Source: Planctomycetaceae bacterium
GTDB lineage: Bacteria; Planctomycetota; Planctomycetia; Pirellulales; Thermoguttaceae
DNA: 49,109 nucleotides
NCBI GenBank assembly: GCA_031274255.1
Contig: JAISQK010000268.1
Location: forward strand, 1-49,109
Direction of reading: 5' to 3'
Below, in pieces: positions 1 through 47,028 of this stretch (position 1 is its first letter; each line of letters opens with the position of its first letter). The position numbers were made by a program, and so were the translations under genes. The notes under the pieces were generated by a model, which was not told where the DNA came from, searched no databases, and saw only the letters and a list, made by a program, of their open reading frames with translations.

Positions 1-437
1 GAGAGTGTTTACCTAAATAGAGATAGAATCTTTTCCTGAAGCAGCGAGAAGCGGTTGGTGGTTGTGACAGTATGCCAAATACGCAGAGACAGATCAACCA
101 TGAACTCTTTTTTCGAAACAACTTTGGTACGTCTGGTCAATCTCCCCAAATGATGGCGGGTGTTGCTGTTGTCGTGTTCAATAGTAATGGTGTGCGCTTT
201 GCCACCCGGACAGAGGAAAAAGACACGAGGCAAAAGGAAATTGGAGGGCAACAATCCCTATCGGATGAATAATATTTGCCTCCGGGATGCAGCGTCCTTA
301 CACTACACCCCGGTATGCTCCCAGCCTCTTTGAGGCGGTCGCTTTCAGTTAGAAAATCTCTTCAACAAGAAGCCGAAAGCCATCAGCCCGCCGGGGCTTT
401 TCGGCATCGAAGGGGGCGGGGGGTTAGCTCAAATTTC

Positions 438-1452: not shown

Positions 1453-1579
1453 TTGGAGAAATCTTTCCAAATGATGCCGACCGCACGAAAGTACCGGAAG
1501 GCATACTGCCCGCCGCCAACATTGTCACGTTGGCCGCCGGGCAACGGCTCAAGCAGAGAGCAGAGGACAGATCAGAGAG

Positions 1580-3846: not shown

Positions 3847-4293
3847 ATGCGATTCAACCGAACAACCGTTTCCAACATGGAACTCGACATGACACCGATG
3901 ATTGACATCGTGTTTTTGCTCATCACGTTTTTCATGTTTGTGTTCAATTTCAGTCAGGCCGACCAGAATGAGCGGATCAAACTCCCGTCAAGTGAATTGG
4001 CGAAAATTTCAGAGGTGAGCGACACGGAATTTTTGACGCTTCAACTGACGGCGGAAGAGACCATTCTTTTCGGCCGGGAGGAGTTTGCGTTTGACGAACT
4101 CAAGCGTCTGTTGTCCAGGGAATTGAAACTGTTCGAGGCACTCGGCACCGACAAATCGAAAGTCCGCGTCCTCATTCGGGCCGACGCGAGGTCGCAAACC
4201 GGCAAACTTCAGGACATCATGGCGGAATGCCGCCGTTGCGGTCTGGAGAATTTCGGCCTTCCTGTCATAATTGATACGCCGGGGGCCATATAA
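3847..4293 (+). CDS. exbD: ExbD/TolR biopolymer transport protein
   Basis: The ExbD signature (E)LDMTPMIDIVFLLITFFM is present. An RBS aggaa lies upstream of the ATG at 3847. The gene is co-directional with exbB. Confidence 0.8.
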   Translation: MRFNRTTVSNMELDMTPMIDIVFLLITFFMFVFNFSQADQNERIKLPSSELAKISEVSDTEFLTLQLTAEETILFGREEFAFDELKRLLSRELKLFEALGTDKSKVRVLIRADARSQTGKLQDIMAECRRCGLENFGLPVIIDTPGAI

Positions 4294-4306
4294 CGATGAG
4301 GAAAAA

Positions 4307-4816
4307 ATGATGAAAAGACCTCATGCCGCCGTTTCGCTGGATTGGGACATGACACCGATGATTGATGTCGTCTTTCTGTTGATGATTTTTTTCGTGTTCA
4401 CGTTTAAAATCGTCAAGCAGGAGGGGGATTTTTCGATAAAAATGCCGCTTTCCGGCGGAAACAGTTCCTCGTTGAGTCTCGACACTTCCGAACCGGTCCG
4501 CATCCGGCTTTTGGCCGACAGCAACGGGGAACTCGCGTCAATCATGATGGGAGACCGGTCGCTCGGCACGAGTTTTACAATACTCCGGCAACAAGTGATG
4601 GCGTATGTCGGATCGCTTTCACCGCAGGCACGCGGCGAGGCCGAGGCGGAACTCCGTTGCGATTATGAGTTGAAATACAAGTACACGGTGGACGCGATGA
4701 CCGCGATTTCCGGATACTATGAAAACGGTCAGATTGTGCCGCTGATTGAAAAGGTCAAGTTTGCCCAAAAACAGGGACAATCAGATTTAACAGAATCATC
4801 AAATGAAGAAAAATAA
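4307..4816 (+). CDS. exbD: ExbD/TolR biopolymer transport protein, second paralog
   Basis: The motif LDWDMTPMIDVVFLLMIFFVF is present. An RBS gagga lies 5 nt before the ATG at 4307. Confidence 0.8.
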   Translation: MMKRPHAAVSLDWDMTPMIDVVFLLMIFFVFTFKIVKQEGDFSIKMPLSGGNSSSLSLDTSEPVRIRLLADSNGELASIMMGDRSLGTSFTILRQQVMAYVGSLSPQARGEAEAELRCDYELKYKYTVDAMTAISGYYENGQIVPLIEKVKFAQKQGQSDLTESSNEEK

Positions 4817-5693
4817 TGACGGCATCCAACATCCATTGGCGGAAGTTTTCGGCTTTCCCGCAGAGGATATGTCGGATTGTGCCCATAGACATCGTAAGAA
4901 CCGGTTGTGTCCGTTTAACAACAAGATACCGAATTGCACGAAAGATAAAGCCCAGTCTCCGTTGGGAGTGTGCAGTATTTTTCACAGAAAGGAAGTTGTT
5001 ATCACCTGTCCGATTCGATTTCGTCAAGGTTGGAATATTGCCGATGATGCGGCAGGATTCTTTTTTGATGAGTCTTCGAAATGGACGACATTGACTGAAG
5101 TTCGGCTCAAAGATGCTGAAGATGGTTCGGCAGGAAATATTGATCTTGTCTTGTGTGCGTATGATGAGCACGGACAAATTACCGATTTCGGTGCATTGGA
5201 AATTCAGGCCGTTTATATTTCCGGCAACGTGAGAACTCCTTTTGATACATATATGGCGAATCCCCGGACCCAATACAACATGGATTGGACGGAAGAGCAG
5301 CATTATCCGAGACCTGATTACCTTTCCTCTTCGAGAAAACGGCTTGCTCCGCAACTGATTTTTAAGGGAGGGATACTCAATTTGTGGAAAAAGAAAACGG
5401 CGGTTGCACTCAATTCCGGTTTTTTCAGTACACTTCCTCCGTTGCCGGAAGTGCCGAAAGAAAATGCGGATATTGCATGGCTGATTTATGACATTTACCA
5501 ACATAAAAATGAAGGAATTCCTTATGAATTACGTCTTGAACGAACTGTTTACACACAATTTGATACAGCCTTGATGCAGATTACCAAGCCCCATGCGGGG
5601 AATGTTGCTGTTTTTCTGGAAACGCTCCAGAAAAAACTGGATAAAAAACTATCCGTCCCTCCTGTCAACAAAACAATCAAAAAAACTTTTTGA
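4803..5693 (+). CDS. type II restriction endonuclease, NotI-like family (putative)
   Basis: The N-terminus has a Cys cluster (C-x9-C-x7-C ... GVCS). The motifs AEVFGF, CPF, GVCSI, TCPIR and GALEIQ resemble the NotI N-terminal metal-binding region as I recall it, and this recollection is not verified. The ORF overlaps the exbD2 stop by 14 nt. It is followed 7 nt later by a DNA methyltransferase gene. Confidence 0.6.
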   Translation: MKKNNDGIQHPLAEVFGFPAEDMSDCAHRHRKNRLCPFNNKIPNCTKDKAQSPLGVCSIFHRKEVVITCPIRFRQGWNIADDAAGFFFDESSKWTTLTEVRLKDAEDGSAGNIDLVLCAYDEHGQITDFGALEIQAVYISGNVRTPFDTYMANPRTQYNMDWTEEQHYPRPDYLSSSRKRLAPQLIFKGGILNLWKKKTAVALNSGFFSTLPPLPEVPKENADIAWLIYDIYQHKNEGIPYELRLERTVYTQFDTALMQITKPHAGNVAVFLETLQKKLDKKLSVPPVNKTIKKTF

Positions 5694-5700
5694 AAATCAA

Positions 5701-6588
5701 ATGAACCAACGTTTTTTATTTCCTGATTTGGAAAAGGGTACTAAGGAGAAACCGGTCAATGTTGCATCGGTTCCTCAGCGAAGTCCGTTTCGTTATCCCG
5801 GTGGAAAGACATGGCTTGTACCACGGTTTCGGCAGTGGATGAAAAGTTTTCAAAGTGTTCCGCAATTAATGATTGAACCATTTGCCGGCGGCGGAATTTT
5901 GAGTTTGACGGCGGCATTTGAAAATCTGGCTGAAAAAATTTTGATGGTGGAACTGGATGAACAGGTTGCGGCGGTTTGGAAAACAATTTTATCAAAAGAT
6001 ATCAGGTGGCTGATACAGCGGATTCTTTCATTTGAATTAAATGTTGATTCCGTGAGAGAAATCCTTTCGCAAAAACCGATGACAACCCGTGAAACGGCAT
6101 TCCGAACACTGCTGAAAAACCGAACCGCTCATGGCGGAATACTTGCGGAAGGAGCGGGAATCATCAAACATGGGGAAAACGGAAAGGGACTTCATTCCCG
6201 ATGGTATCCTGAAACCATAGCCCGAAGGATTGCGGCGATAGAAACTGTGTCGGAAAAAATTGAGTTTGTCCAAACTGATGCCATTGAAGTATTGGAAGAA
6301 TATCAATTGACCGAAGATGTTGTATTTTTTATTGATCCGCCCTATACTGCCGGAGGGAAACATGCCGGAAGCCGCCTTTACAACCATTGTCGCATTGACC
6401 ATGCAGGATTATACTCGTTATGTGCAAAACTCAATGGAGATTTCCTGATGACGTACGACAATGCGGAAGAAGTCCGGACGCTGGCTGAACAACATGGATT
6501 TAAAACAAAAGCCATCCCAATGAAAAATACGCATCATACTAAATTGAATGAACTGCTTGTCGGAAAAAAACTGGACTGGGCGGAGTAA
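5701..6588 (+). CDS. DNA N6-adenine methyltransferase, D12 class (Dam-like)
   Basis: Motifs present are FRYPGGK, EPFAGGG (SAM binding) and FIDPPYT (catalytic DPPY). The gene lies immediately downstream of the putative restriction endonuclease, which suggests a restriction-modification pair. Confidence 0.85.
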   Translation: MNQRFLFPDLEKGTKEKPVNVASVPQRSPFRYPGGKTWLVPRFRQWMKSFQSVPQLMIEPFAGGGILSLTAAFENLAEKILMVELDEQVAAVWKTILSKDIRWLIQRILSFELNVDSVREILSQKPMTTRETAFRTLLKNRTAHGGILAEGAGIIKHGENGKGLHSRWYPETIARRIAAIETVSEKIEFVQTDAIEVLEEYQLTEDVVFFIDPPYTAGGKHAGSRLYNHCRIDHAGLYSLCAKLNGDFLMTYDNAEEVRTLAEQHGFKTKAIPMKNTHHTKLNELLVGKKLDWAE

Positions 6589-21500: not shown

Positions 21501-22310
21501 ATGATTACCTACCTTGAAGGACGCCATTTTCCTGAAATTGATGGCAAAATCGTTATCGTTGTTGCAAAATTCAATAAAACCATCACCGACCGGCTTCTGG
21601 AAGGTGCGCTTGATGTCCTGAAGAAGGCCGGTGTCAGTGACTCCAATATCATCGTGGTCCGCGTGCCGGGAGCGTTTGAGATTCCTATGACGGCGAACCG
21701 CACCGCCCAGTTGTCGGACACCCTTGCCGTGATCTGTCTCGGAGCCGTTATCAAAGGGGAAACCACGCATGACCAGCATATCAACCGGGCTTTGAGCTGC
21801 GAGCTGATGAGTATCGGCTGCAAAACCGGAGTGCCGGTGATTTTCGGCGTCCTGACGTGTAACACGGTGGAACAGGCTCTGGCACGTTCCGCGCAAACGG
21901 ACGAATCCGACAGGGATAAATCGGTTCAGCCGCATACCGGCAATAAAGGTGCCGACGCGGCGGAAGCGGCACTGGAAATGATTCATCTTCTTGCACAGAT
22001 TCCCGATCCCGGTCCGGACCTCAGTGACATGGCCAACATGTTCATGCACACGCTTCTGGCAGGAAAAGAGCATCAGGAAGAGGATATTTTTGACAGCAAT
22101 TTTGATTATGACGACGATGACGACGATGACGATGAGGAAGAAGACGAGGAGGAATTCGGTTGCGGGGCCCGCGGTTGTTCGTGTCACCTTCATTCCGAAT
22201 TGCCTCCCAAGCCCCGTAAGACGAAAAAGGCGGTGAAGAAGTCAACCAAAAAGGCCGTGAAAAAAGCGGCGAAAAAGTCCGCAAAGAAATCCGTCAAGAA
22301 AAAAAGATGA
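21501..22310 (+). CDS. ribH: 6,7-dimethyl-8-ribityllumazine synthase fused to an acidic / Cys-His / Lys-Ala-rich C-terminal extension
   Basis: The first ~160 aa are a canonical lumazine synthase (IVVAKFN...VPGAFEIP...GETTHDQ...). The following ~110 aa contain DYDDDDDDDDEEEDEEE, GCGARGCSCHLH and AKKAVKK repeats. Confidence 0.85.
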   Translation: MITYLEGRHFPEIDGKIVIVVAKFNKTITDRLLEGALDVLKKAGVSDSNIIVVRVPGAFEIPMTANRTAQLSDTLAVICLGAVIKGETTHDQHINRALSCELMSIGCKTGVPVIFGVLTCNTVEQALARSAQTDESDRDKSVQPHTGNKGADAAEAALEMIHLLAQIPDPGPDLSDMANMFMHTLLAGKEHQEEDIFDSNFDYDDDDDDDDEEEDEEEFGCGARGCSCHLHSELPPKPRKTKKAVKKSTKKAVKKAAKKSAKKSVKKKR

Positions 22311-22524
22311 CTCACACTCAAGCCGGTTGACATTGCCTGTAAGAGCAGATCCATTCTCCCGACAAGGTTGCGGAGAGGGAAGCGAATGTTTGTTCCGTTA
22401 CGGGAGGAACTTCGCGGCGGATGTCCGTCCGGAATTTCGGTGTCCGAGTTTCACCGCCGATCGTTTTGCGTGAAATCCTTATGTGTTTCCTTTATTTTAC
22501 ACAAGTTTAATCATCTTTACCTCC

Positions 22525-22995
22525 ATGTTTTTTGAAGAAGACGATTTTTACGTTCCGACCTCAGGAAAGTTTGCCAACCGCAGCCGCGCAAGAGCGGCGG
22601 CATTTCAGATTCTTTATCAGGAGGAGTTGAATCCCCGGTCGTCGCAGAGCCGCTGGGTGGATACGTTTCTCGAACAGGAATTGCCCGACCACGAGGAGGT
22701 TCTCCGCTTTGCCCGGACGCTCATTGAAGGAGTCCGCAAAAATCAGCCCGAACTGGACAGACAGATTGCGGAACAGTCGCGGAACTGGTCGCTTTCGAGA
22801 ATGTCGGTGACGGACCGAAACATTCTACGGCAGTCGCTTTATGAACTTTTATATCTTGAAACCCCGAAACCGGTGGTGATTTCCCAGGCGATAGAACTTG
22901 CGAGGAGTTTCGGTTCCAACGATTCCGCCGCATTCGTCAACGGGATCCTCGACCGTTTCAACAAGACAAAAGTGTCTCCGAATCAGGAAGAATAG
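22525..22995 (+). CDS. nusB: transcription antitermination factor NusB
   Basis: NusB-family motifs are present (RARAAAFQILYQ...). The ribH-nusB gene order is the classic one. Confidence 0.85.
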   Translation: MFFEEDDFYVPTSGKFANRSRARAAAFQILYQEELNPRSSQSRWVDTFLEQELPDHEEVLRFARTLIEGVRKNQPELDRQIAEQSRNWSLSRMSVTDRNILRQSLYELLYLETPKPVVISQAIELARSFGSNDSAAFVNGILDRFNKTKVSPNQEE

Positions 22996-23010
22996 CGTAC
23001 TTCCACTGAT

Positions 23011-23234
23011 CCGACCGGGCAGCGTGGCACGCGGCTCCGGTCGCGAGTCGCGACGGGCGGTTTGCCTCCCGGCTACGCAGTCGGGCAACGTGACGTTGCA
23101 TCCAGTAGCCTCATGGTCACTACGTTCCATTCGGCCTTCGGTAGACAATCTTTTCCAACTACTTCCCTTTTTTTCCGCTCGTGGATTCCAGCGACCAACG
23201 GGAGCGGGTTTATGGCTCTCGGGACGGAAGTCCC
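23011..23234. repeat. GC-rich hairpin-dense repeat element, copy A (5'-truncated?)
   Basis: It shares ggtcgcgagtcgcgacgggcggt and the terminal block ccagcgaccaacg...ctcgggacggaagtccc with the elements at 46381-46646 and 46845-46917. Confidence 0.5.
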
Positions 23235-23929
23235 ATCCGGGCTAACGTTTATACGCAAATCCCAGTGGATAAATTTTAGTTGTATCGTATTTCAATTGGT
23301 CGGGAATGATTATCTTTGCAGAAAAAAAACAGAGATATATGAAAACAAGAGATCTATTGAATCGTTTTCCGGACAAACGTTTGGGAAAAAGGGGTTAGAG
23401 CGGATTCATTATTTACGCAGACAGTATCCATTGTGTTTGAAGTCGTTTTTGCCGTCGGTTGAAGAAAAAACTTTCTCGACCCGCATAGGAACTCTTGCAG
23501 CTTCCCCACATCGCGAATTTTTTCCCGACACAACAAACTTTTCAATATTCGAGAAACTCAGCTCAATCAGATCCAGGTCCGGACAATACGGTAAACAGCG
23601 TAACACACTGTATCACACTTACCTCCTTCCGGTCTATTCGAGACGGTCAGCTTCCGAATAATGATAAAATCCTCCGCGCATCATTATGGGCGAAGTGAAA
23701 CAGTCCCGGCCAAAAGTCAGGCTTGAATGTCAAAAAGATTCCGCGATAAATTCGTGAGGCACGTAGAACTGTTGCATAGGTTTATTGACAACACGTCACA
23801 AACGTAACAATCGCTGTTATGTTTGACTGCGGAAATCATGAATCATTCAATCATTCATTCACTGCGTAGAATCAGGGCTTCCCACGAAGCGGACATCCGG
23901 GTGGATGTCTCCCATTGAGGCGGCTCGTT

Positions 23930-23987
23930 GAACCGGTTGAGTGTAATAAGTATAAGACTCCTGACCGGATCATCACGACGCGGAAGT
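23930..23987. repeat. ~41-57 bp repeat, copy 2
   Basis: The core ctcctgaccggatcatcacgacgcggaagtcttccgtcctg matches 1412-1452. It sits ~165 bp 3' of the minus-strand cdsA. Confidence 0.6.
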
Positions 23988-24150
23988 CTTCCGTCCTGAA
24001 GTTTCTGCGGTCAAACATAACGGCAAGTTTCACTTGCGTTCACTGACGAGCACATTTTTGGTACGCAAAAACCGGGCACAGGGCGTTCGCGGCATTACGG
24101 AAAACACAGGAAAAACATGAGTGTCACTCAAAAATATGCCTCCGGCGGCG

Positions 24151-25041
24151 TTACAGTACCAGCGTCCACCAGAAAAACGCGACCGGTGCGGCGATAAGAA
24201 GCGAATCAAAAATGTCGAGGAAACCGCCGAATCCCGGTACGAGCGTCCCGGAATCTTTGATTTGTACGTCACGTTTAATCAGCGACCCCGCCAAATCGCC
24301 GAGTGCTCCGGCCAGCGCCACCGCAATTCCGTAACTGAACCATTCGATAAAATCCGTGTGCCGCGACATCAAAATGGTCAGCGAGAACCACGACCCGAAC
24401 AGGGCGAACGCAAGTCCTCCCAATCCGCCTTCGATAGTTTTCTTCGGGCTGAGCTCCGGAGCCATTTTGTGACGTCCGAGCAGACGTCCGACGGTGTAGG
24501 CACCGATGTCATTCATTTTGACAATCATCACATACGACAACAGCTCGCCAATCCCGTAAACCATGCGGAGAAGGACCAGAAAACAGGCAAGAAGTCCCAG
24601 GTAGGCCATGGCAAAAACGGCCCCGGCCAGATTGATGGTGACACCGCCCGGCCGTTTGTACCGCCACATTTCTCCGGCGAACGCCACAAGGATTCCGCTT
24701 GCAAAGACGAGAACCATTCCCATACTCGCGCGGCCGGCCGCCCATTCCCAGTGCGTCGCGGCGTGTCCGGCGGAATCCAGACAGACCATGTAATCGTGAC
24801 CGACGCAAATCACCCAACAACTGACCGTCATCAACAGCGTTCCGCCGTAAACGGTGAACCGCCGCGGATACAGCCCTCCGGCGTGCAACAGGTCGAGAAA
24901 TTCCTTGCAGAGAAAAAACAGACAAACTCCGAACAACGGCAAAAGGACAATCCCCTTGATACAAAAGAGATTGTCAAGAATACACAACCCGATGAGCAGC
25001 AGCACCACAGGGACTCCAATGACCATCCGCCAAATCAGCAT
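24151..25041 (-). CDS. cdsA: phosphatidate cytidylyltransferase
   Basis: The C-terminal signature SPKKTIEG...GDL..S..KR...KDSG..PGFGG.LD is present. The protein is multi-TM. Confidence 0.9.
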   Translation of the reverse strand: MLIWRMVIGVPVVLLLIGLCILDNLFCIKGIVLLPLFGVCLFFLCKEFLDLLHAGGLYPRRFTVYGGTLLMTVSCWVICVGHDYMVCLDSAGHAATHWEWAAGRASMGMVLVFASGILVAFAGEMWRYKRPGGVTINLAGAVFAMAYLGLLACFLVLLRMVYGIGELLSYVMIVKMNDIGAYTVGRLLGRHKMAPELSPKKTIEGGLGGLAFALFGSWFSLTILMSRHTDFIEWFSYGIAVALAGALGDLAGSLIKRDVQIKDSGTLVPGFGGFLDIFDSLLIAAPVAFFWWTLVL

Positions 25042-25108: not shown

Positions 25109-25831
25109 TCACGTGAACCTGTTTAATCCGCCGAAACGCCGCTCTCTTTTGGCGAAAGCCCGAACCGCTTCCGCAAGGAGCACCTCATTGAATTCCGGCC
25201 AGCACTTCTCCGTGACCCATAATTCCGCGTAACTCAACTGCCAGAGGAGATAATTACTGAGCCGTTTTTCTCCGGCGGTACGAATCAACAAATCAGGGTC
25301 AGGCATTCCCTTTGTGTAAAGATACCCGGAAATGACCGTTTCGTCAATTTTTTCCTCAGAAATTTTTCCCGCCAAAACATCGGCGGCAATTTTTCGAACC
25401 GCATCGGTGATTTCCTGACGCGATCCGTAGTTGACCGCCAGACAAAGTGTCATCCCTGTATTTTTCGCAGTTTGCTCAATTGTCTCATCCATCGCGTTGA
25501 GTGTCTCCAGTGGAATCTTTTCACGTCTCCCGATCACTTGCAGTTTCACATTGTTTTTCATCAATGTGGAACGTTCCTCAATCATGTAGTGCCGCAGCAG
25601 TTCCATAAGAAAGCGGAGTTCCTCATCCGGACGCTTCCAATTTTCGCTCGAAAAACAATACAGCGTCAGTTGCGGAAGATTCCATCGGCAGCAAATCTCC
25701 GTGATTTCCCGAACAACGGCTGCTCCCCGGCGATGACCTTCCATCCGCGGAAGTCCCTGATTTTGTGCCCAGCGTCCGTTACCATCCATAATGACGGCAA
25801 TATGTTTGGGCATTTTTTCCGGCAGTTCCAT
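25109..25831 (-). CDS. uppS: isoprenyl transferase (undecaprenyl-diphosphate synthase)
   Basis: The motifs HIAVIMDGNGRWA and ...SENWKRP..E are present. Confidence 0.95.
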   Translation of the reverse strand: MELPEKMPKHIAVIMDGNGRWAQNQGLPRMEGHRRGAAVVREITEICCRWNLPQLTLYCFSSENWKRPDEELRFLMELLRHYMIEERSTLMKNNVKLQVIGRREKIPLETLNAMDETIEQTAKNTGMTLCLAVNYGSRQEITDAVRKIAADVLAGKISEEKIDETVISGYLYTKGMPDPDLLIRTAGEKRLSNYLLWQLSYAELWVTEKCWPEFNEVLLAEAVRAFAKRERRFGGLNRFT

Positions 25832-28812: not shown

Positions 28813-29160
28813 GTGAGCGTGACTAAATTGTTTGTCTCCGGCGTCTATGGTGTGAATAAAGACTTTGTTAAAAAGCGCACATTGCAATCTTCGAAAATGT
28901 TTCCTGTCATGATGAGCAATGACAGTGAAGACCTTGATGAAGAGGAATGGGAAGATGACGATGATGAAGACGAAGAATGGGAAGATGAAGACGAAGAATG
29001 GGATGATGATTGGGACGACGAAGAGGAAGACGAGGAAGATGAAGAGGAATGGGATGATGAAGACGAGGAAGAATGGGAAGAAGTAGAAGACGAAGAAGAT
29101 GAGGAAGAAGATTGGGATGATGCCGACGAAGAAGATGAGGAAGATATCGAAGAAGAGTAA
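28813..29160 (+). CDS. extremely acidic Asp/Glu/Trp-rich low-complexity protein (hypothetical)
   Basis: A GTG start is present with RBS aaagga. The C-terminal ~85 aa are almost entirely D/E with W roughly every 6-10 residues (EEWEDDDDEDEEWEDEDEEWDDDWDD...). The underlying DNA is a cryptic (GAN)n repeat. Confidence 0.5.
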   Translation: MSVTKLFVSGVYGVNKDFVKKRTLQSSKMFPVMMSNDSEDLDEEEWEDDDDEDEEWEDEDEEWDDDWDDEEEDEEDEEEWDDEDEEEWEEVEDEEDEEEDWDDADEEDEEDIEEE

Positions 29161-29216
29161 AATTTATATGAGTTGAATCTTTTCTGTGAAATAGATAAAT
29201 TGATTTAATTGTGTGC

Positions 29217-30259: not shown

Positions 30260-32221
30260 ATGAGGAATCACTGCCGTTTTTTTGCTGTTCTCGGACTGTT
30301 TTTTGCGATGTCCCCTTTAGCGGCGGAGACGACGGATTCCCCCCCGCGTGTCTTTTACCCGTGTACGACCTTTTATGCCTGCCGTGCCGAACTATGGGAA
30401 AAATCCGGACCGTTGATGTATGGTTTTATCGGAAATCCCGACCCGGAACATCCCCTTCCCGAGGATGTCGCTAGGGATTGGCCGATTATCGGAGGAACAT
30501 TCACCGACGGCGACGAACTGTACGGAATCGTTGTATTGTTTCTGGATTCACCGCGGATTGACGAGGAGAAATTCAAAAGGCAACTGCTGGCCAATACCTT
30601 TTTTGAGTCGTTTTTCCCCGACAGACAGGTGGCGATTCATCATGGGAATCCTTTTCATATTCCCGAGGGTCCGCGCGGAGTCGCTATCGTGATTTCTGAA
30701 AAAGCGGTTGATTTTTTGTCACTGAAAAACATGACAAATGAAGAGCCCGCGGACTATTTGATTCAAATGATTGGGGAACTGTTCGCGCAAAGAAAAGATT
30801 ACATTGAATCGCGAAGTTATGTCGGAATGCTTCGCGAGTTCCCCGAACCTCAACTTTATCCGGTATTGCCGCCGGAAAACATGACAAGTGAAAAGCTCTC
30901 TGCGTATTTGATTCAAATGATTGGGGAACCGTTCGCGCAAAGAAAAGATTACATTGAGTCGCGATGTTATGCCGGAATACTTCACGAGTTCCCCGAACAT
31001 CAACTTTATCCGGTATTGCCGCCGGAAACGGAAAATGAAGGTACCTTTCTTCGGAAGGTTCGTGAATATCGTGCCGGACACAATGACATTGACAAGATAA
31101 ACGCGACTTTTTGGGGACTCAAGTGGACGGAAACGGACATCGAATTGGTATGGGACCGTTTCGTCGAAGAAGGAACTCCGGCAGCCGAAACCTATCGAAA
31201 CCGGAATACCGGCAAGCCGTTTCAATTGGGAGGTTTTTTCGATGAAGACACTTCCGGCGGAGCGTTTCGTCTGTATCCCAAAGACATTTCGGAAGACAAA
31301 TTTTTCCTGCAATGCGGAACGACGATCATTCCCACGGAAGAGAGAGAGGAAGATGACCGCATTTATACGATGCGGATAGGTTTCTTGTTCAGCAAGACTC
31401 CGTCGCAAGAGTATAACCCTATCGTTGAAGAAGGGATATTTGTTTTGAACACTGTTTACCAGCCGGAAAATCTTCCCGAAGAAAAAGGGGTTCCCGACGC
31501 GGAAACGATGGATGAAATCAATCATGACTTTGTGGAGAGTTTCCACCCGTTGATTCAGAACATCGTTTCCCAATCCGCGGAAATGGAACAAGACGCACCA
31601 TTGGATTTCGCAGTGAAACAGCAGGGAGACATTTTTCTCGCGGCCTGTGCGTTGCCGCCGGGCGGAAAACCTATCGACTGGAAGCTGGCGGAAAACATCA
31701 TTCCTGCAGTGAGAAAGATGTTTGAACACACACCCAATCCCTATAAGAATAAAGATCCAAAAGAACAATCGGAGGTCTTGGAATCCTGGATCATTTCTCT
31801 GTTTTCCCTCTCCGAAAATGGCGAAAACCGCGACGGCATGGATTTTTCGGAGTTTTTCATCAACATTGGCGAACAATCGGCTCATGTGGTGTTCGGATAC
31901 AAACCGGACCTCCTTTGTGCCGCCGCCACGATCGGAGAATTTGACGAAACCGCCAAACAGTTTCGTGACGAATCGCACACATTCGAGGAAATGGTCGGTC
32001 TGCTGCAAGAGTGTATTGAGGCGTCGCAACGATTGGAAACGGAGAAAATGCCTGTCCCGCAAATTGTTTATCAGCATAAAATCGACGGTCGTGACAACCG
32101 TGACATCCTGTTAACGAACGAAACCGCAGAGGGACATACGAAATACACACTGACCGTCACCGGTGAGGCGATTGGTCCGGCGATACAGATTGCGAAAATG
32201 TTCCTGCCGTCACCGCGGTAG
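30260..32221 (+). CDS. secreted hypothetical protein (653 aa) with internal 50-aa tandem duplication
   Basis: A signal peptide MRNHCRFFAVLGLFFAMSPLAAE is present. The antisense 452-aa ORF at 30719-32077 is an R/F-rich shadow ORF. The duplicated segment is NMT(N/S)E...YLIQMIGE(L/P)FAQRKDYIESR. Confidence 0.6.
   Translation: MRNHCRFFAVLGLFFAMSPLAAETTDSPPRVFYPCTTFYACRAELWEKSGPLMYGFIGNPDPEHPLPEDVARDWPIIGGTFTDGDELYGIVVLFLDSPRIDEEKFKRQLLANTFFESFFPDRQVAIHHGNPFHIPEGPRGVAIVISEKAVDFLSLKNMTNEEPADYLIQMIGELFAQRKDYIESRSYVGMLREFPEPQLYPVLPPENMTSEKLSAYLIQMIGEPFAQRKDYIESRCYAGILHEFPEHQLYPVLPPETENEGTFLRKVREYRAGHNDIDKINATFWGLKWTETDIELVWDRFVEEGTPAAETYRNRNTGKPFQLGGFFDEDTSGGAFRLYPKDISEDKFFLQCGTTIIPTEEREEDDRIYTMRIGFLFSKTPSQEYNPIVEEGIFVLNTVYQPENLPEEKGVPDAETMDEINHDFVESFHPLIQNIVSQSAEMEQDAPLDFAVKQQGDIFLAACALPPGGKPIDWKLAENIIPAVRKMFEHTPNPYKNKDPKEQSEVLESWIISLFSLSENGENRDGMDFSEFFINIGEQSAHVVFGYKPDLLCAAATIGEFDETAKQFRDESHTFEEMVGLLQECIEASQRLETEKMPVPQIVYQHKIDGRDNRDILLTNETAEGHTKYTLTVTGEAIGPAIQIAKMFLPSPR
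30724..31029 (+). repeat. perfect-period 150-bp tandem duplication (2 units) inside a CDS
   Basis: Unit 1 starts at atgacaaatg (30731) and unit 2 at atgacaagtg (30881). The units are about 90% identical and preserve the reading frame. Confidence 0.85.
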
Positions 32222-41725: not shown

Positions 41726-42628
41726 TCATTCCTCCTCAAAAAAGTCATAATCCATCCGCTTGATTTCATAAGACGCAACGGTGGTAACTCCCAAATTGTA
41801 GTCAATCATCAATTGCATCAATTCCGTACCATCAATCAATACTATTTTCGTATCATTATGGGGTTGGTATTTCCTCGCGTCCTCCGTAAATGTGGAAGTG
41901 GTAATGAAAACACCTTTTTTTGCCCCATGACCCGCAAGTGCCCCAACAAATTTTTGGATTTCAGGACGGCCAATCGAAGAATCTTTCCAACGTTTGGCCT
42001 GAAGATAAACGACATCAAGACCGAGTTTGTCTTCCTTGATAATACCGTCAATTCCACCGTCTCCCGACTGTCCCACCGCTTTTCCTGCATCTTCCATTGA
42101 ACCGCCGTACCCCATCCGCACAAGGAGTTTGACCACAAGACGTTCGAAGAAATCCGATTTTTTGGCATGAATTTGACTCAGTAATTCATCTGCCAGTGCC
42201 TGACGCAATATTTCATAATTCTCATCAATCACTTCTTCCGGTGCCGCAGCTTTTTCATCACCGTCAATTGCCGCATTCTCGTTTTCATTCTTTTTTCCAG
42301 AAACAATGTATTCAGAAAATCTCTTCAAGTATTTAATATCGATGGAGTCCGGTTTTTCTTTGAGAATATCCAAACCTCTTTTTGTGATTTTGACGTATCC
42401 TTTCTCCGGTGTTTCAATCACTGAAACTCTTTTAAAATAAGAACGAACCCAATCAACATTATTTCCGAATCTCTTTCCACCGCTTTTCAACCGCTCGTTT
42501 TTTTCCGCTTCGGTTAATTGAAAGTGTTCTGCCAATGTTTCTTTGATGTCACTGGCCTTGTGAAGTTTATTATCTCCAATAATTTTCAGAAAAGGCAAAA
42601 AACATTCTTGAAATTCCGGTACCGGCAT
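41726..42628 (-). CDS. mrr: Mrr-family type IV (modification-dependent) restriction endonuclease
   Basis: The Mrr_cat motifs are present (GQSGDGGIDGIIKEDKLGLDVVYLQAKRW...IDGTELMQLMIDYNLGV). An N-terminal winged-helix Mrr_N-like region is present. Confidence 0.85.
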   Translation of the reverse strand: MPVPEFQECFLPFLKIIGDNKLHKASDIKETLAEHFQLTEAEKNERLKSGGKRFGNNVDWVRSYFKRVSVIETPEKGYVKITKRGLDILKEKPDSIDIKYLKRFSEYIVSGKKNENENAAIDGDEKAAAPEEVIDENYEILRQALADELLSQIHAKKSDFFERLVVKLLVRMGYGGSMEDAGKAVGQSGDGGIDGIIKEDKLGLDVVYLQAKRWKDSSIGRPEIQKFVGALAGHGAKKGVFITTSTFTEDARKYQPHNDTKIVLIDGTELMQLMIDYNLGVTTVASYEIKRMDYDFFEEE

Positions 42629-44078: not shown

Positions 44079-45359
44079 GTGGGATTTTTTACGGAACATT
44101 TTTCGATACTTCCGGTCATGGGGGCGACGCTTCTTCTTTCGATGTTTTTCTCGATGTGCGAGACGACGTTTTTCACGCTTTCCCCCGCCGAACGCCGACG
44201 CATGAAACACGGCAACCGTTTTCAGCGGCTCGCGGTACGGCTGGCGGAAAATTCGGAAGCGATTTTGCCGGCGATTCTCTTTTGGAACCTGTCGGTGAAT
44301 CTCCTCACTTTTGCCCTGTCGACGATTCTGAGTTTGCAGCTTCAAAAAGCGAACCATCCGACGCAGGCAGGTCTTGCGGCCGTTACGGTATTGGTCATTG
44401 TGGTGGTGTTTTGCGAAATTCTCCCGAAGAATCTCGGCGTTCTGTTTCCGCGATTTTTTGCGATACTGCTTGCGCCGCCTCTTTCATTTGCGGTACGGCT
44501 GGCAAAACCGATTCTCCCGTTTCTCAACGGGGTCAACATTTTGACGCGGCGGCTCTTTTTTCCGAATTTTCAGCCGGAACCGTTTCTTCAAATCAGTGAT
44601 CTCGAAAAACTGGTGGAACTTTCGCAAAAAGACGCCACACTCCTTAAGCGGGAACAGCGTGTGCTGCAAAGCATTGTCCATCTTTCCGAAGTCACCGCGG
44701 AAGAACTGATGCGTCCGCGGAAAATGCTGAAGCTCTACAAACCGCCGCTCACCTTTGCGGCACTGCTCAAGGAACCGCCGGCCGGGGATTATATTTTCAT
44801 CACCGAGCCGGACACGGATGAAATCGCCGCCGCCGTTTCCCTCCGTCACTATAAGATTCCTCCTGACACGGCGGATCAGGACACGGCGGTCTGGGAGGCC
44901 AATACCGTTCCGGTGGTGTATGTTCCGTGGTCAATGAAGCTGGCCGGCGTGCTGGAAGTTCTGCAAAAGCAACACCGCGACATCGCCGCTGTACTCAACG
45001 AATACGGGGAGACCGTCGGTGTCATTTCGATTCAAGACTTGACGTATTTCCTTTTTGCGATGGTTCCAAGCCGGACACGTTTGCTGCTGAAGCGTTCCTC
45101 ACTTCGGAAAACAGGTCCCGGTCACTGGCAGGTTTCGGGAATCACGAATCTTCGGCGTCTGAAACGCTATTTTGCACTGGCTTCGCTGCCGCCGTGTGAC
45201 GCGCTGACCGTCGCGGGGGTCCTCCAGGAGGAACTGCAGCGGATGCCGGAAACCGGTGATGTGTGTTGCTGGGGACCGTTTCAGATGACCGTACTGGACC
45301 AGTCGCAGGAAGAAGGCATGAAGGTGGACATCCAACTGAAAAAGGAGGTCCGGGCATAA
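44079..45359 (+). CDS. hemolysin/CNNM family protein (DUF21 + CBS pair + CorC_HlyC)
   Basis: An N-terminal multi-TM DUF21 domain is present, with a CBS pair (E(E)LMRPR...) and a C-terminal transporter-associated domain. The overlapping ORF at 43919-44599 is rejected. Confidence 0.8.
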   Translation: MGFFTEHFSILPVMGATLLLSMFFSMCETTFFTLSPAERRRMKHGNRFQRLAVRLAENSEAILPAILFWNLSVNLLTFALSTILSLQLQKANHPTQAGLAAVTVLVIVVVFCEILPKNLGVLFPRFFAILLAPPLSFAVRLAKPILPFLNGVNILTRRLFFPNFQPEPFLQISDLEKLVELSQKDATLLKREQRVLQSIVHLSEVTAEELMRPRKMLKLYKPPLTFAALLKEPPAGDYIFITEPDTDEIAAAVSLRHYKIPPDTADQDTAVWEANTVPVVYVPWSMKLAGVLEVLQKQHRDIAAVLNEYGETVGVISIQDLTYFLFAMVPSRTRLLLKRSSLRKTGPGHWQVSGITNLRRLKRYFALASLPPCDALTVAGVLQEELQRMPETGDVCCWGPFQMTVLDQSQEEGMKVDIQLKKEVRA

Positions 45360-46379
45360 ATGGCAACGGCTCTGATTTTACTTGTTCTCGGCTTTGTTCA
45401 CAGTGCCGTGTTCAGCGGCACGGAAACCGGATACTACCGTGTTTCGCGCATTCGGATTCTGGTGGACGCCGTTTCGGGAAAACGTGCGGCGAAGATGATT
45501 CTTTGGCTTATCAATCGTCCGTCGGTGTTCATCGCAACGATTCTGATCGGGAACAACATCGCCAACAATATCGTTTCGACGGGCGGAATCCTTCTTGTGC
45601 AAACCTTTTTTGTCACCGGAAACCACACCGGCGACATCATGGCGACCGTGTTACTGACACCGTTTCTTTTTGTGTTGGGAGAAATGTTCCCGAAATATCT
45701 GGCACTTCACGCCCCTTACCAATTTCTGCGGCGGGTCTGTCCGTTGTTTTTGCTCTACGTGATTCTTTTTCTGCCTGCTTCGATGCTGATCGGGTTTTTC
45801 AACCGGATGCTTTCTTCGCTTCTGCATGGAAAACACGAGGAATGGCGGATGATTCTCGCCCGAAAGGAACTGTCCCGCGGTTTTGACGAAGGGGAATACG
45901 CCGGAGTCTTGTTCTCCGTGCAGCGGGAGTTGACGAAAAATGTTTTTGCGGCGGCGCGTCAGTCGATCCGTCCGTTTGCCAGACCGCTTGACGCCTTCCC
46001 GCGTCTTACGCAGAGCATGCCGCCGGAGACGCTCCTTGCCGAAGCGAAAAAACACGGACTTTGCGAGTTTCCGGTCTTTTCCGAAAATCCTCTTGACGAG
46101 CCAGTCGGTTATCTCAGAACATTTGAACTTCAGCTTGCCGCCGTCCGGGCGAAAGACAAGCCGGTGCCGCTTCCGATTCGCTCTTTGGAATCTTTTGAGG
46201 AGTCGCATTCTCCGCTGAATGCGTTGCTGCTTTTCCAGTCCACCGGGGAATCGCTTGCGTGTCTGGAATCCGAGGACGGTGAAATCACGGGCTTGATTTC
46301 GGTCTCGGAACTGCGAAAAACGATGTTTTCGACAGAGAGTTTTCCCCCGCCAACCAACGCGAGGGCATTGGATCCCTGA
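45360..46379 (+). CDS. DUF21/CNNM-family membrane protein with CBS domain (paralog)
   Basis: The ATG at 45360 directly follows the TAA of the preceding paralog. A DUF21-like TM region and CBS-like C-terminus are present. Confidence 0.7.
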   Translation: MATALILLVLGFVHSAVFSGTETGYYRVSRIRILVDAVSGKRAAKMILWLINRPSVFIATILIGNNIANNIVSTGGILLVQTFFVTGNHTGDIMATVLLTPFLFVLGEMFPKYLALHAPYQFLRRVCPLFLLYVILFLPASMLIGFFNRMLSSLLHGKHEEWRMILARKELSRGFDEGEYAGVLFSVQRELTKNVFAAARQSIRPFARPLDAFPRLTQSMPPETLLAEAKKHGLCEFPVFSENPLDEPVGYLRTFELQLAAVRAKDKPVPLPIRSLESFEESHSPLNALLLFQSTGESLACLESEDGEITGLISVSELRKTMFSTESFPPPTNARALDP

Positions 46380-46380
46380 T

Positions 46381-46646
46381 GGGACTGCCGTCCCGAGAGT
46401 CACGAACCCGCTCCTGATGGTCGCTGGTATCAACCGGCGGAAAACGTTTTCATTTGGTATCCAGTGGGAGAGATTTTCTAACTGGCGGCGAACCGCCAAC
46501 GTAGCACGTTGGATCGGTCGCGAGCCGCGACGGGCGGTATGCCCCCCAGCCTTTTCAAGGCGGTCGGTTTCAGTAGTTATTCTCTTCACGTTGTTCCGCT
46601 TGCCAATTCCAGCGACCAACGCTGTGGTTCTCGGGACGGTAGTCCC
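46381..46646. repeat. GC-rich hairpin-dense repeat element, copy B (complete; ~40-bp terminal inverted repeats)
   Basis: The 5' end gggactgccgtcccgagagtcacgaacccgctcctgatggtcgctgg (46381-46427) is the inverted repeat of the 3' end ccagcgaccaacgctgtggttctcgggacggtagtccc (46609-46646). Internal hairpins are ggcgg-cgaa-ccgcc, ccaacgt-agc-acgttgg and gtcgcg-agc-cgcgac. The element starts 1 nt after the stop codon of the upstream gene. Confidence 0.55.
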
Positions 46647-46844
46647 TTCTGCGGTGAAGCGGCCTACCGCTGCACGCCGGAGGCATTTCTTTTTAGTGGC
46701 TTTTGCGGAGAGTGAAGGGAATTGGGAAGAAAGCAGTCAGGGTTATCTCAATATTCTCTTATGAAACTCTTTCGTCATAAGACTTTAAAAGGGATGTCTG
46801 CCGACCGGTCAAACGTGCCGTTTGATCGCAATATCGCAAGCGGT

Positions 46845-46917
46845 TGGAAACATTGTTTCGCCAGTTGATACCAGTGAGCAACGCGAACGGATTCGTGGTT
46901 TTCTGGACGGAAGTCCC
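46845..46917. repeat. GC-rich repeat element, partial copy C
   Basis: The sequence gccagttgataccagtgagcaacgcgaacggattcgtggttttctggacggaagtccc is homologous to the terminal-repeat block of copy B (the reverse complement of its 5' end) and to the copy A end. Confidence 0.5.
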
Positions 46918-47028
46918 GGCCGGGATACAACGTCCGCACGTTGGCGGGGCTGCCGTTTTGCAGAGAGCGAAGTGAATGTTTGACCCGTTGAGGGACTATC
47001 TATTTTAGTCCCCGTAACAAGTCAGCAT

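Follow-up and report, generated by a model that had tools for sequence, protein, structure and literature searches.

Short non-coding repeats of about 50-1000 bp that fold back through inverted ends have been described from bacteria as miniature inverted-repeat transposable elements (MITEs). They include the Correia/NEMIS, ERIC and Nezha elements, as well as BrickBuilt, MITE293 and MITE700 of Porphyromonas gingivalis and ATR of Neisseria, whose inverted ends resemble those of the IS5 family of insertion sequences (IS); in Porphyromonas and Neisseria, such MITEs have few intact copies and irregular target duplications (PMC4596501). Repetitive extragenic palindromic (REP) sequences are defined as imperfect palindromes of 20-40 nt with an unpaired GTAG/CGTC tag at one end, in a survey that mentions the phylum considered here (PMC3733652). 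For planctomycetes, knowledge of small mobile DNA is close to nil. The subject of this text is a family of repeats in one entire 49,109-bp contig (JAISQK010000268.1, GC 49.7%), called the window below, of a metagenome-assembled genome (MAG) of an uncultured Planctomycetaceae bacterium. An earlier note on this DNA pointed to three GC-rich repeat copies, A, B and C, in the gaps 22996-24150 (1155 nt) and 46380-47028 (649 nt), each of which lies between convergent genes, and offered either a MITE-like element or a structured RNA as their explanation.

The flagged sequence is a genuine family of short non-coding intergenic repeats. The family is previously undescribed and of a known, MITE/REP-like kind; the searchable literature contains no description of the sequence, nor of such repeats in planctomycetes. 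In our opinion, the copies and fragments probably represent non-autonomous MITE/REP-like repetitive DNA accumulated in the larger intergenic gaps, and the family is most likely selfish miniature mobile DNA and not an RNA gene. The elements are multi-copy and modular, possess inverted arms, give no coding or known-RNA signal and have homologues in another genus, where no covariation is observed. We infer that the elements are or were mobile, and which enzyme may have moved them.

BLAST comparisons in the window showed that A, B and C share blocks where the earlier note had placed them, with E values from 1e-8 to 3e-17 within 49 kb. The right part of A (23171-23241) is 84.5% identical over 71 nt to the reverse complement of the left part of B (46374-46444; E 2.6e-17), the cores of A (23012-23073) and B (46489-46550) are 77% identical over 62 nt (E 1.3e-8), and A (23170-23244) and C (46853-46927) are 75% identical over 75 nt (E 1.3e-8). 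For the hairpin motif GGACGGNAGTCC, the window has four exact matches, which lie at 23222, 46634 and 46905 and, on the minus strand, at 46382; if one mismatch is tolerated, the count rises to six against 0.96 expected, and none of 100 shuffles reached six. The 23-mer GGTCGCGAGYCGCGACGGGCGGT was found twice against an expectation of 0.01. Partial copies were also found at 277-370 and, less securely, at ~1453-1516. The family did not fall on any of the grounds which the earlier note had named: further copies exist, similarity is significant, and no housekeeping RNA was matched.

The elements are assembled, as mosaics, from three or more reusable modules: a core, a short block beside the core and a terminal module, T. 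The core (~100-160 nt) contains a small hairpin, GCGT-GGC-ACGC in A and ACGT-AGC-ACGT in B, continues with the 23-nt block H (GTCGCG-AGY-CGCGAC, a 6-bp stem with a 3-nt loop, followed by GGGCGGT) and further short hairpins, and terminates in ...GGTCGGTTTCAG or ...CCTTCGG. The variants of both internal hairpins, reported earlier, are thus present as described. Directly after the core stands the short block TTAGAAAATCTCTTC, written TAGAAAATCTCTTC(C)AAC, which is carried by A and D, flanks the core of B on each side and recurs in a looser form in E'; the versions of A and B differ from the D block by 0-3 mismatches in 14. The T module (~80-100 nt) has the consensus TTGTTCCGC..GTTGATWCCAGCGACCAACG..GAGCGGGTTYGTGRCTCTCGGGACGGNAGTCCCATCCGGGAT, with T-type ends GGGACNNNNGTCCC..., and finishes in the stem-loop GGGAC-NNNN-GTCCC. 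The four T copies in the window are mutually 64-73% identical and have ragged outer ends; they are therefore old, and a target-site duplication is not readable.

Copy B is a complete foldback composed of inverted T, block, core, block and T. Its left T lies on the minus strand at 46354-46449 (nhmmer T profile at 46367-46449, E 1.5e-23) and has GGGAC-TGCC-GTCCC at 46381-46394. The core occupies 46461-46592 on the plus strand (nhmmer core profile, E 3.2e-32) between inverted versions of the block, GGGAGAGATTTTCTAA ... TAGTTATTCTCTTC, and contains H, GGTCGCGAGCCGCGACGGGCGGT, at 46516-46538 (plus strand), identical to the copies of Planctomycetaceae bacterium UBA8133 and of metagenomes discussed below. 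The right T (46587-46660, plus strand; nhmmer E 2.7e-17) has a 9-nt deletion relative to the other T copies and ends in GGGAC-GGTA-GTCCC at 46633-46646. The ends of B are inverted repeats of each other, as the earlier note stated, and the arms are longer than the 47 and 38 nt given there: 46378-46447 pairs, with gaps, with 46588-46649.

Copy A consists of core, block and T. Its core (23003-23162, plus strand; nhmmer profile of the A, B and D cores, E 4.7e-27) begins 8 nt past the stop codon of nusB, contains the GCGT-GGC-ACGC hairpin and the 23-nt block, and has the right end ...CCTTCGGTAGACAATCTTTTCCAAC. The H of this copy, GGTCGCGAGTCGCGACGGGCGGT, with a 6-bp stem and an AGT loop, is an exact match of the pattern at 23039-23061 (plus strand), for which 0.01 would be expected in the window. 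The T of A (23168-23248, plus strand; nhmmer T profile, E 4.7e-24) ends in GGGAC-GGAA-GTCCC (23221-23234). Of the region 22996-24120 flagged in the earlier note, the family accounts for 23003-23250, or ~250 of 1125 nt; the remainder matches no Pfam domain and no Rfam family, and the small ORFs (open reading frames) in the rest of the gap (23246-24150) have no Pfam domain match.

Copy C is a solo T at 46849-46944 on the plus strand (nhmmer E 2.3e-23). It was thought to be inverted; it in fact has the same orientation as the right-hand terminal blocks of A and B, which it repeats, and is inverted only relative to the left arm of B, with which it forms the inverted repeat 46354-46451/46847-46944. 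The terminal stem-loop described for all ends holds for A and for both ends of B, but C reads TGGAC-GGAA-GTCCC and therefore has a stem of 4 bp only. Copy D (277-370, plus strand; nhmmer core profile, E 1.1e-18; 82% identical to B 46535-46588 by BLAST) is a core fragment lacking H, followed by the block TTAGAAAATCTCTTCAA (349-365), in which it ends. A weak partial core, E' (1453-1516, minus strand; nhmmer core profile, E 1.3e-4), is tentative. All copies are situated in ORF-free gaps beside housekeeping genes (between nusB and cdsA, and downstream of a CNNM gene) or adjoin an IS.

The folding of the copies differs. Copy B folds at -153.8 kcal/mol (z = -5.5) into one long helix, with arms of 62-70 nt, that closes a multi-hairpin core. 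The hairpin density named in the earlier note is unexceptional in A (z = -0.3) and C (z = +0.2), which fold no better than shuffled sequence. No match was obtained with Rfam 15 at the gathering score over the whole window, and a relaxed search of the two gaps (E up to 10) gave only chance-level small nucleolar and long non-coding RNA models (E 1.5-9.7), so that the cmscan check proposed earlier revealed no known RNA family above chance. ARAGORN detected no tRNA or tmRNA in or near the elements. The ORFs running across them (23062-23661 and 46417-46764) match no Pfam domain, and the concatenated open-frame translations of the elements in six frames have no homologue among 5.8 billion proteins. 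Counts of terminator-like and promoter-like sites were at chance level against shuffles. Intrinsic terminators were considered and rejected: the hairpin GGGAC-NNNN-GTCCC is followed by ATCCGGG, TTCTGCG or GGCCGGG without a U-tract, and the scan did not exceed shuffles. Integron attC sites and remnants of group II introns were also considered and dropped, the former on account of flanking genes that are housekeeping genes and not cassettes, and the latter for want of an Rfam intron match.

Relatives of the core were found through H. Among 185,579 species representatives, the 23-mer has 12 exact loci, all in UBA8133, a different genus-level relative (SerC 69% identical to that of the window, GC 57%). 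It has also 42 loci in metagenomes, which mostly belong to the organism of UBA8133 because their flanks are 99-100% identical, and is absent from viral contigs. Dispersed repeats would be expected to lie at contig ends, and many of the loci do. In the UBA8133-type family, H is enclosed in an element of 100-210 nt whose inverted ends TATACYGAAGSCNGTTGA... and ...TCAACCGGCTTCGGTATA (TATACYGAAG.../...CTTCGGTATA) are clear and 16-18 nt long. Searched with a profile of this element, the fetched loci (420 kb, in part redundant) gave ~100 hits; the profile also matches the cores of A (23037-23079, E 1.5e-5) and B (46514-46566, E 5.4e-7).

In 32 aligned distinct copies of the UBA8133 type, H is present (as 48-57 nt) in 21 and absent in 11, with a clean junction between GAAGCC and GACGATTCGG; it also occurs in a second subfamily with different flanks (loci L008, L014, L017 and L058). 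Its presence or absence, together with its other sequence contexts, indicates that H is an exchangeable module and not a part of one fixed element, and these contexts point to module shuffling or nesting. In another metagenome contig, of 66% GC (L028, Ga0265327_10009345), two to three tandem copies of a 20-nt unit, GGTCGCGAGCCGCGACGGGC, were observed at 4578-4622 without a MITE-like frame.

Covariation was tested on the 32 aligned copies; the four T copies of the window are too few for such a test. In this alignment RNAalifold predicted no more than 7 consensus pairs, for an energy of -6.3 kcal/mol and a covariation term of 0.01. Four helices were named for the test, namely the ends, the basal hairpin, the H stem and a second hairpin, in which 82% of cells are paired; every measure of covariation is at or below the shuffle mean, with two-sided change in 1 pair against 3.2 and a score of 0.048 against 0.053. 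The left end varies (GAAGGCTGTTG, GAAAACCATTG) and the right end is constant, so pairing is lost there and not compensated. The classifiable copies occur in all four classes of flanking-gene orientation, including divergent-promoter contexts, in an approximation from rough longest-ORF gene calls that is unreliable in detail. Rfam detected only tRNAs in 10 related loci. The copy pattern of the UBA8133-type family is that of recently amplified selfish DNA and not of an RNA under structural selection.

Several side observations concern the same loci. One UBA8133-type element ends 1 nt from a tRNA gene (L051, 1541-1804), and elements lie near a cluster of five tRNA genes (L048, 4359-6480). Two metagenome contigs, L023 and L040, are 99.9% identical apart from two deletions (426 nt at 3874-4299 and 1030 nt at 5978-7007 in L023 coordinates), the only indels found among overlapping contigs; these cut through genes and are therefore population variants or assembly artefacts, not element excisions.

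Comparing these data with the described MITEs, it may be said that the elements of the window are likewise 100-330 nt long, non-coding, multi-copy, intergenic and, in copy B, folded back via inverted ends; many copies are truncated or miss one end, nesting occurs, and one module is similar, in its D version, to the inverted end of an IS5-family element on the same contig. In contrast to those MITEs, their outer T ends match no IS end examined, a target duplication could not be defined, no parent element was found in 420 kb of related loci, and they are a mosaic of exchangeable modules rather than the deletion derivative of a single IS. They are also GC-rich, whereas MITEs are usually AT-rich.

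The likeness to REP sequences, to their inverted pairs (REPINs) and to bacterial interspersed mosaic elements (BIMEs) lies in H, a short GC-rich stem-loop unit found singly, in tandem (L028) or in inverted pairs, downstream of genes. As in BIMEs, H is combined with other motifs into mosaics, and it is conserved across related genera. Unlike REPs and REPINs, the elements have no unpaired GTAG/CGTC tag at the stem, no REP-associated tyrosine transposase (RAYT) was seen among the window ORFs scanned with Pfam, and the full elements are 5-10 times longer. A canonical REP was accordingly rejected, since the nearest GTAG in UBA8133-type copies stands 6 nt downstream of the H stem and is paired, in GTAGGC...GGCTAC. 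BOX elements of Streptococcus pneumoniae are, like the repeats of the window, modular and intergenic, with predicted stable structures and no known transposase; they are put together from a small set of box types, whose number and order vary. They belong to another phylum, share no sequence relationship with the repeats of the window and do not possess long inverted terminal modules like T.

The MITE-like explanation, one of the two offered in the earlier note, agrees with these features. Units of 100-330 nt without a Pfam match or a protein homologue are dispersed, as copies or fragments, over four to five loci in the 49-kb window; B has long inverted arms of 62-70 nt, and A, C, D and E' have one end or none, as truncated copies and solo ends do. 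In a related genome, the core homologues behave as an abundant element with inverted ends of its own. A transposase supplied in trans would recognise the ends of the elements and spread them, and the elements would afterwards have decayed, recombined and nested into one another.

A possible link to such a transposase is offered by an IS5-family element at 437-1404 on the plus strand, which has 22-nt inverted ends CTTAGAATATGTCTTCAAAAGT, a transposase encoded at 568-1300 and two ORFs with the Pfam domains DUF4096 and DDE_Tnp_1; the ORFs overlap, which is consistent with a frameshifted transposase. D and E' face each other across this IS. Between the D block TTAGAAAATCTCTTCAA and the IS end TTAGAATATGTCTTCAA (438-454), 88 nt away, 15 of 17 positions agree; this was equalled by none of 200 shuffles, and we estimate that chance would produce ~0.005 matches as good in all the comparisons taken together. 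Other small contigs of the MAG or of its source metagenome carry at least six related copies of the IS. As a source of a transposase acting in trans, the IS5-family element is no more than a candidate, and the similarity of its end may serve as a lead.

Several results weigh against the favoured explanation. The A and B versions of the block are not individually significant against the IS end, only that of D is, and the outer T ends resemble no IS end examined. The T patterns gave no match in GTDB species genomes (strict search), in metagenomes of the Joint Genome Institute (JGI; relaxed search) or in viral contigs. A target-site duplication around T is not definable with such ragged outer ends. 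In the UBA8133-type family, TA stands on both sides of most copies, while 8 of 31 have TA...GA; no empty site or insertion polymorphism was seen among overlapping metagenome contigs; and the 420 kb of loci contain no longer element in which these ends enclose a transposase gene, all paired ends there being 100-210 nt apart.

The elements could alternatively be REP/BIME-like sequences acting mainly at the RNA level, which we regard as unlikely. Transcribed together with the 3' ends of genes, they would form hairpins that make mRNA more stable, cause exonucleases to pause or aid termination between convergent genes, and their spread would be a separate question. The positions of A and B, which begin 8 nt and 1 nt past plus-strand stop codons in gaps between convergent genes, would suit such a role, as REPs are typically situated both downstream of coding regions and between ORFs that are unidirectional or convergent (PMC3733652), and the change from GCGT-GGC-ACGC in A to ACGT-AGC-ACGT in B is compensatory, the one such change in the small hairpin. 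However, the terminal hairpin has no U-tract and terminators are not in excess over shuffles, A and C are no more stable than shuffled sequence, T stands in both orientations within one gap, the canonical unpaired GTAG/CGTC tag beside the stem is absent, and the UBA8133-type family shows no covariation and occurs, according to the rough gene calls, in divergent-promoter contexts too.

It is also conceivable, if improbable, that H is the recognition unit of an undescribed REP-like system, in which a dedicated enzyme copies H into different host repeats. The hosts would be the TATAC-ended MITE of UBA8133, the second subfamily of that genome, the tandem arrays of the organism with 66% GC and the T-flanked elements of the window. 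Such an enzyme would explain the identity of H across genera whose housekeeping proteins are ~69% identical.

Another possibility, which appears doubtful to us, is that no mobile family exists and that decayed old IS ends, local segmental duplications or gene-conversion tracts have persisted in slack intergenic DNA. The copies are indeed diverged (64-85% identity) and truncated, and neither their ends nor target duplications can be defined; an IS lies between D and E', D carries a block like the IS end, and the small source-metagenome contigs with the same IS5-family element are IS-rich and nested. Against passive persistence, the modules are combined differently at four separate loci across 46 kb, and the UBA8133-type homologues of the core are far too numerous and their ends too uniform.

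Structured non-coding RNA (ncRNA) genes closed by a long helix, for instance omega-RNA-like guides of a TnpB or IscB encoded elsewhere or another large class, which the earlier note had proposed as its second explanation, are resembled in length (150-330 nt), in the multi-hairpin fold of B closed by a long helix and in an H hairpin conserved between two genera with SerC only 69% identical, but are a most improbable explanation, given no Rfam match at either threshold in the window or at the gathering or relaxed level in the 10 related loci, no tnpB, iscB or tyrosine-transposase gene (RAYT, IS200/IS605-type) among the Pfam-scanned ORFs of the window, no adjacent nuclease gene, a covariation term of 0.01 in 32 copies with the other measures at or below the shuffle mean, uncompensated left-end variants, both orientations in one gap, the z values of A and C, and a closing helix in one of four to five window copies only.

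Returning to the selfish-repeat explanation, the 3' end of the CNNM gene deserves attention. It was noted earlier that B begins 1 nt after a stop codon; GGGAC indeed starts at 46381 and the TGA stands at 46377-46379, but the similarity of the left arm continues to 46354, ~26 nt into CNNM, so that the outer ~26 nt of the left T overlap the last codons of this gene and its stop. This stretch is homologous to the outer T of copy C. CNNM homologues end 6-9 residues past the conserved MFS motif, and the protein of the window (MDR1959752.1 at NCBI, 100% identical in the protein collection) extends 15 residues, TESFPPPTNARALDP, so that its C-terminus exceeds theirs by 6-9 residues. It seems that the left arm of B replaced the original 3' end of CNNM, supplying its last ~8 codons and the stop. 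The two closest syntenic relatives (60-64% identity in CNNM) have spacers of 67-125 nt with no element; they are too distant to be used as empty sites or as proof of replacement.

The practical value of these data is modest. Repeats of this type fragment MAG assemblies, as the position of many related copies at the ends of contigs shows. They also lengthen intergenic gaps, give rise to spurious ORFs (115-199 aa in this case) and can rewrite gene ends, as CNNM, which appears to draw its last codons from an element, illustrates. Once recognised, they need not be wrongly annotated as ncRNA genes or as hypothetical proteins. The identity of H across genera and its optional presence in another repeat provide a handle for finding the enzyme that moves the module.

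As for the surroundings, the Pfam-annotated genes of the window are an ordinary chromosomal set. NusB (22483-22995, plus strand) and CdsA (24151-25041, minus strand) border the first gap, with UppS (25109-25831, minus strand) beyond it, and two CNNM genes (44079-46379, plus strand; the second at 45360-46379) precede the second gap. A DUF1559 protein, typical of planctomycetes, RuvB, ScpB and RNase PH, among others, were also identified. The contig ends 436 nt to the left of the IS5-family element, within repeat-rich DNA.

The small source-metagenome contigs with the IS5-family element are IS-rich and nested, and those of JGI metagenome 3300042615 found via the transposase contained no repeat element. 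On one of the latter (L059, 837-1517), a copy of the IS is located directly upstream of an ORF with HTH_23, HTH_29 and HTH_32 matches, which is presumably the N-terminal part of an IS630-type transposase. An IS4/5-type DDE gene stands beside this ORF, which makes a nested IS cluster in the source community.

Other repeats were also observed in the window. A 50-nt repeat, AGTRTAAGRCTCCTGACCGGATCATCACGACGCGRAAGTCYTCCGTCCTG (92% identity), is present at 1403-1452, directly adjoining the IS5-family element on its right, and at 23949-23998 in the nusB-cdsA gap. Within it there is a hairpin of the GGACGGAAG type, which bears a faint likeness to the end of the T module. In the same gap, a 32-nt inverted repeat (23804-23835/24002-24033, 78% complementary) encloses 166 nt including the 50-nt repeat, so that a further small foldback element may lie at 23804-24033. 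A repeat of 38 nt (82% identity, E 6.5e-5) is shared by the ribH-nusB spacer (22368-22405) and the sequence just past copy C (46958-46995).

Acidic codon repeat runs rich in D and E (and W) were found at 22090-22163, as the C-terminal tail of the ORF 21501-22310, which we take from its translation to be lumazine synthase-like, and at 28813-29172, where the run fills a 115-aa ORF (28813-29160). A 653-aa ORF without a Pfam match (30260-32221) includes a tandemly duplicated 150-nt unit (30716-31015, 88% identity). Finally, the window encodes a NotI-like restriction endonuclease (Pfam E 5e-59) with a neighbouring D12-class methyltransferase, as well as a separate Mrr-type restriction enzyme (4803-6588 and 41726-42628).

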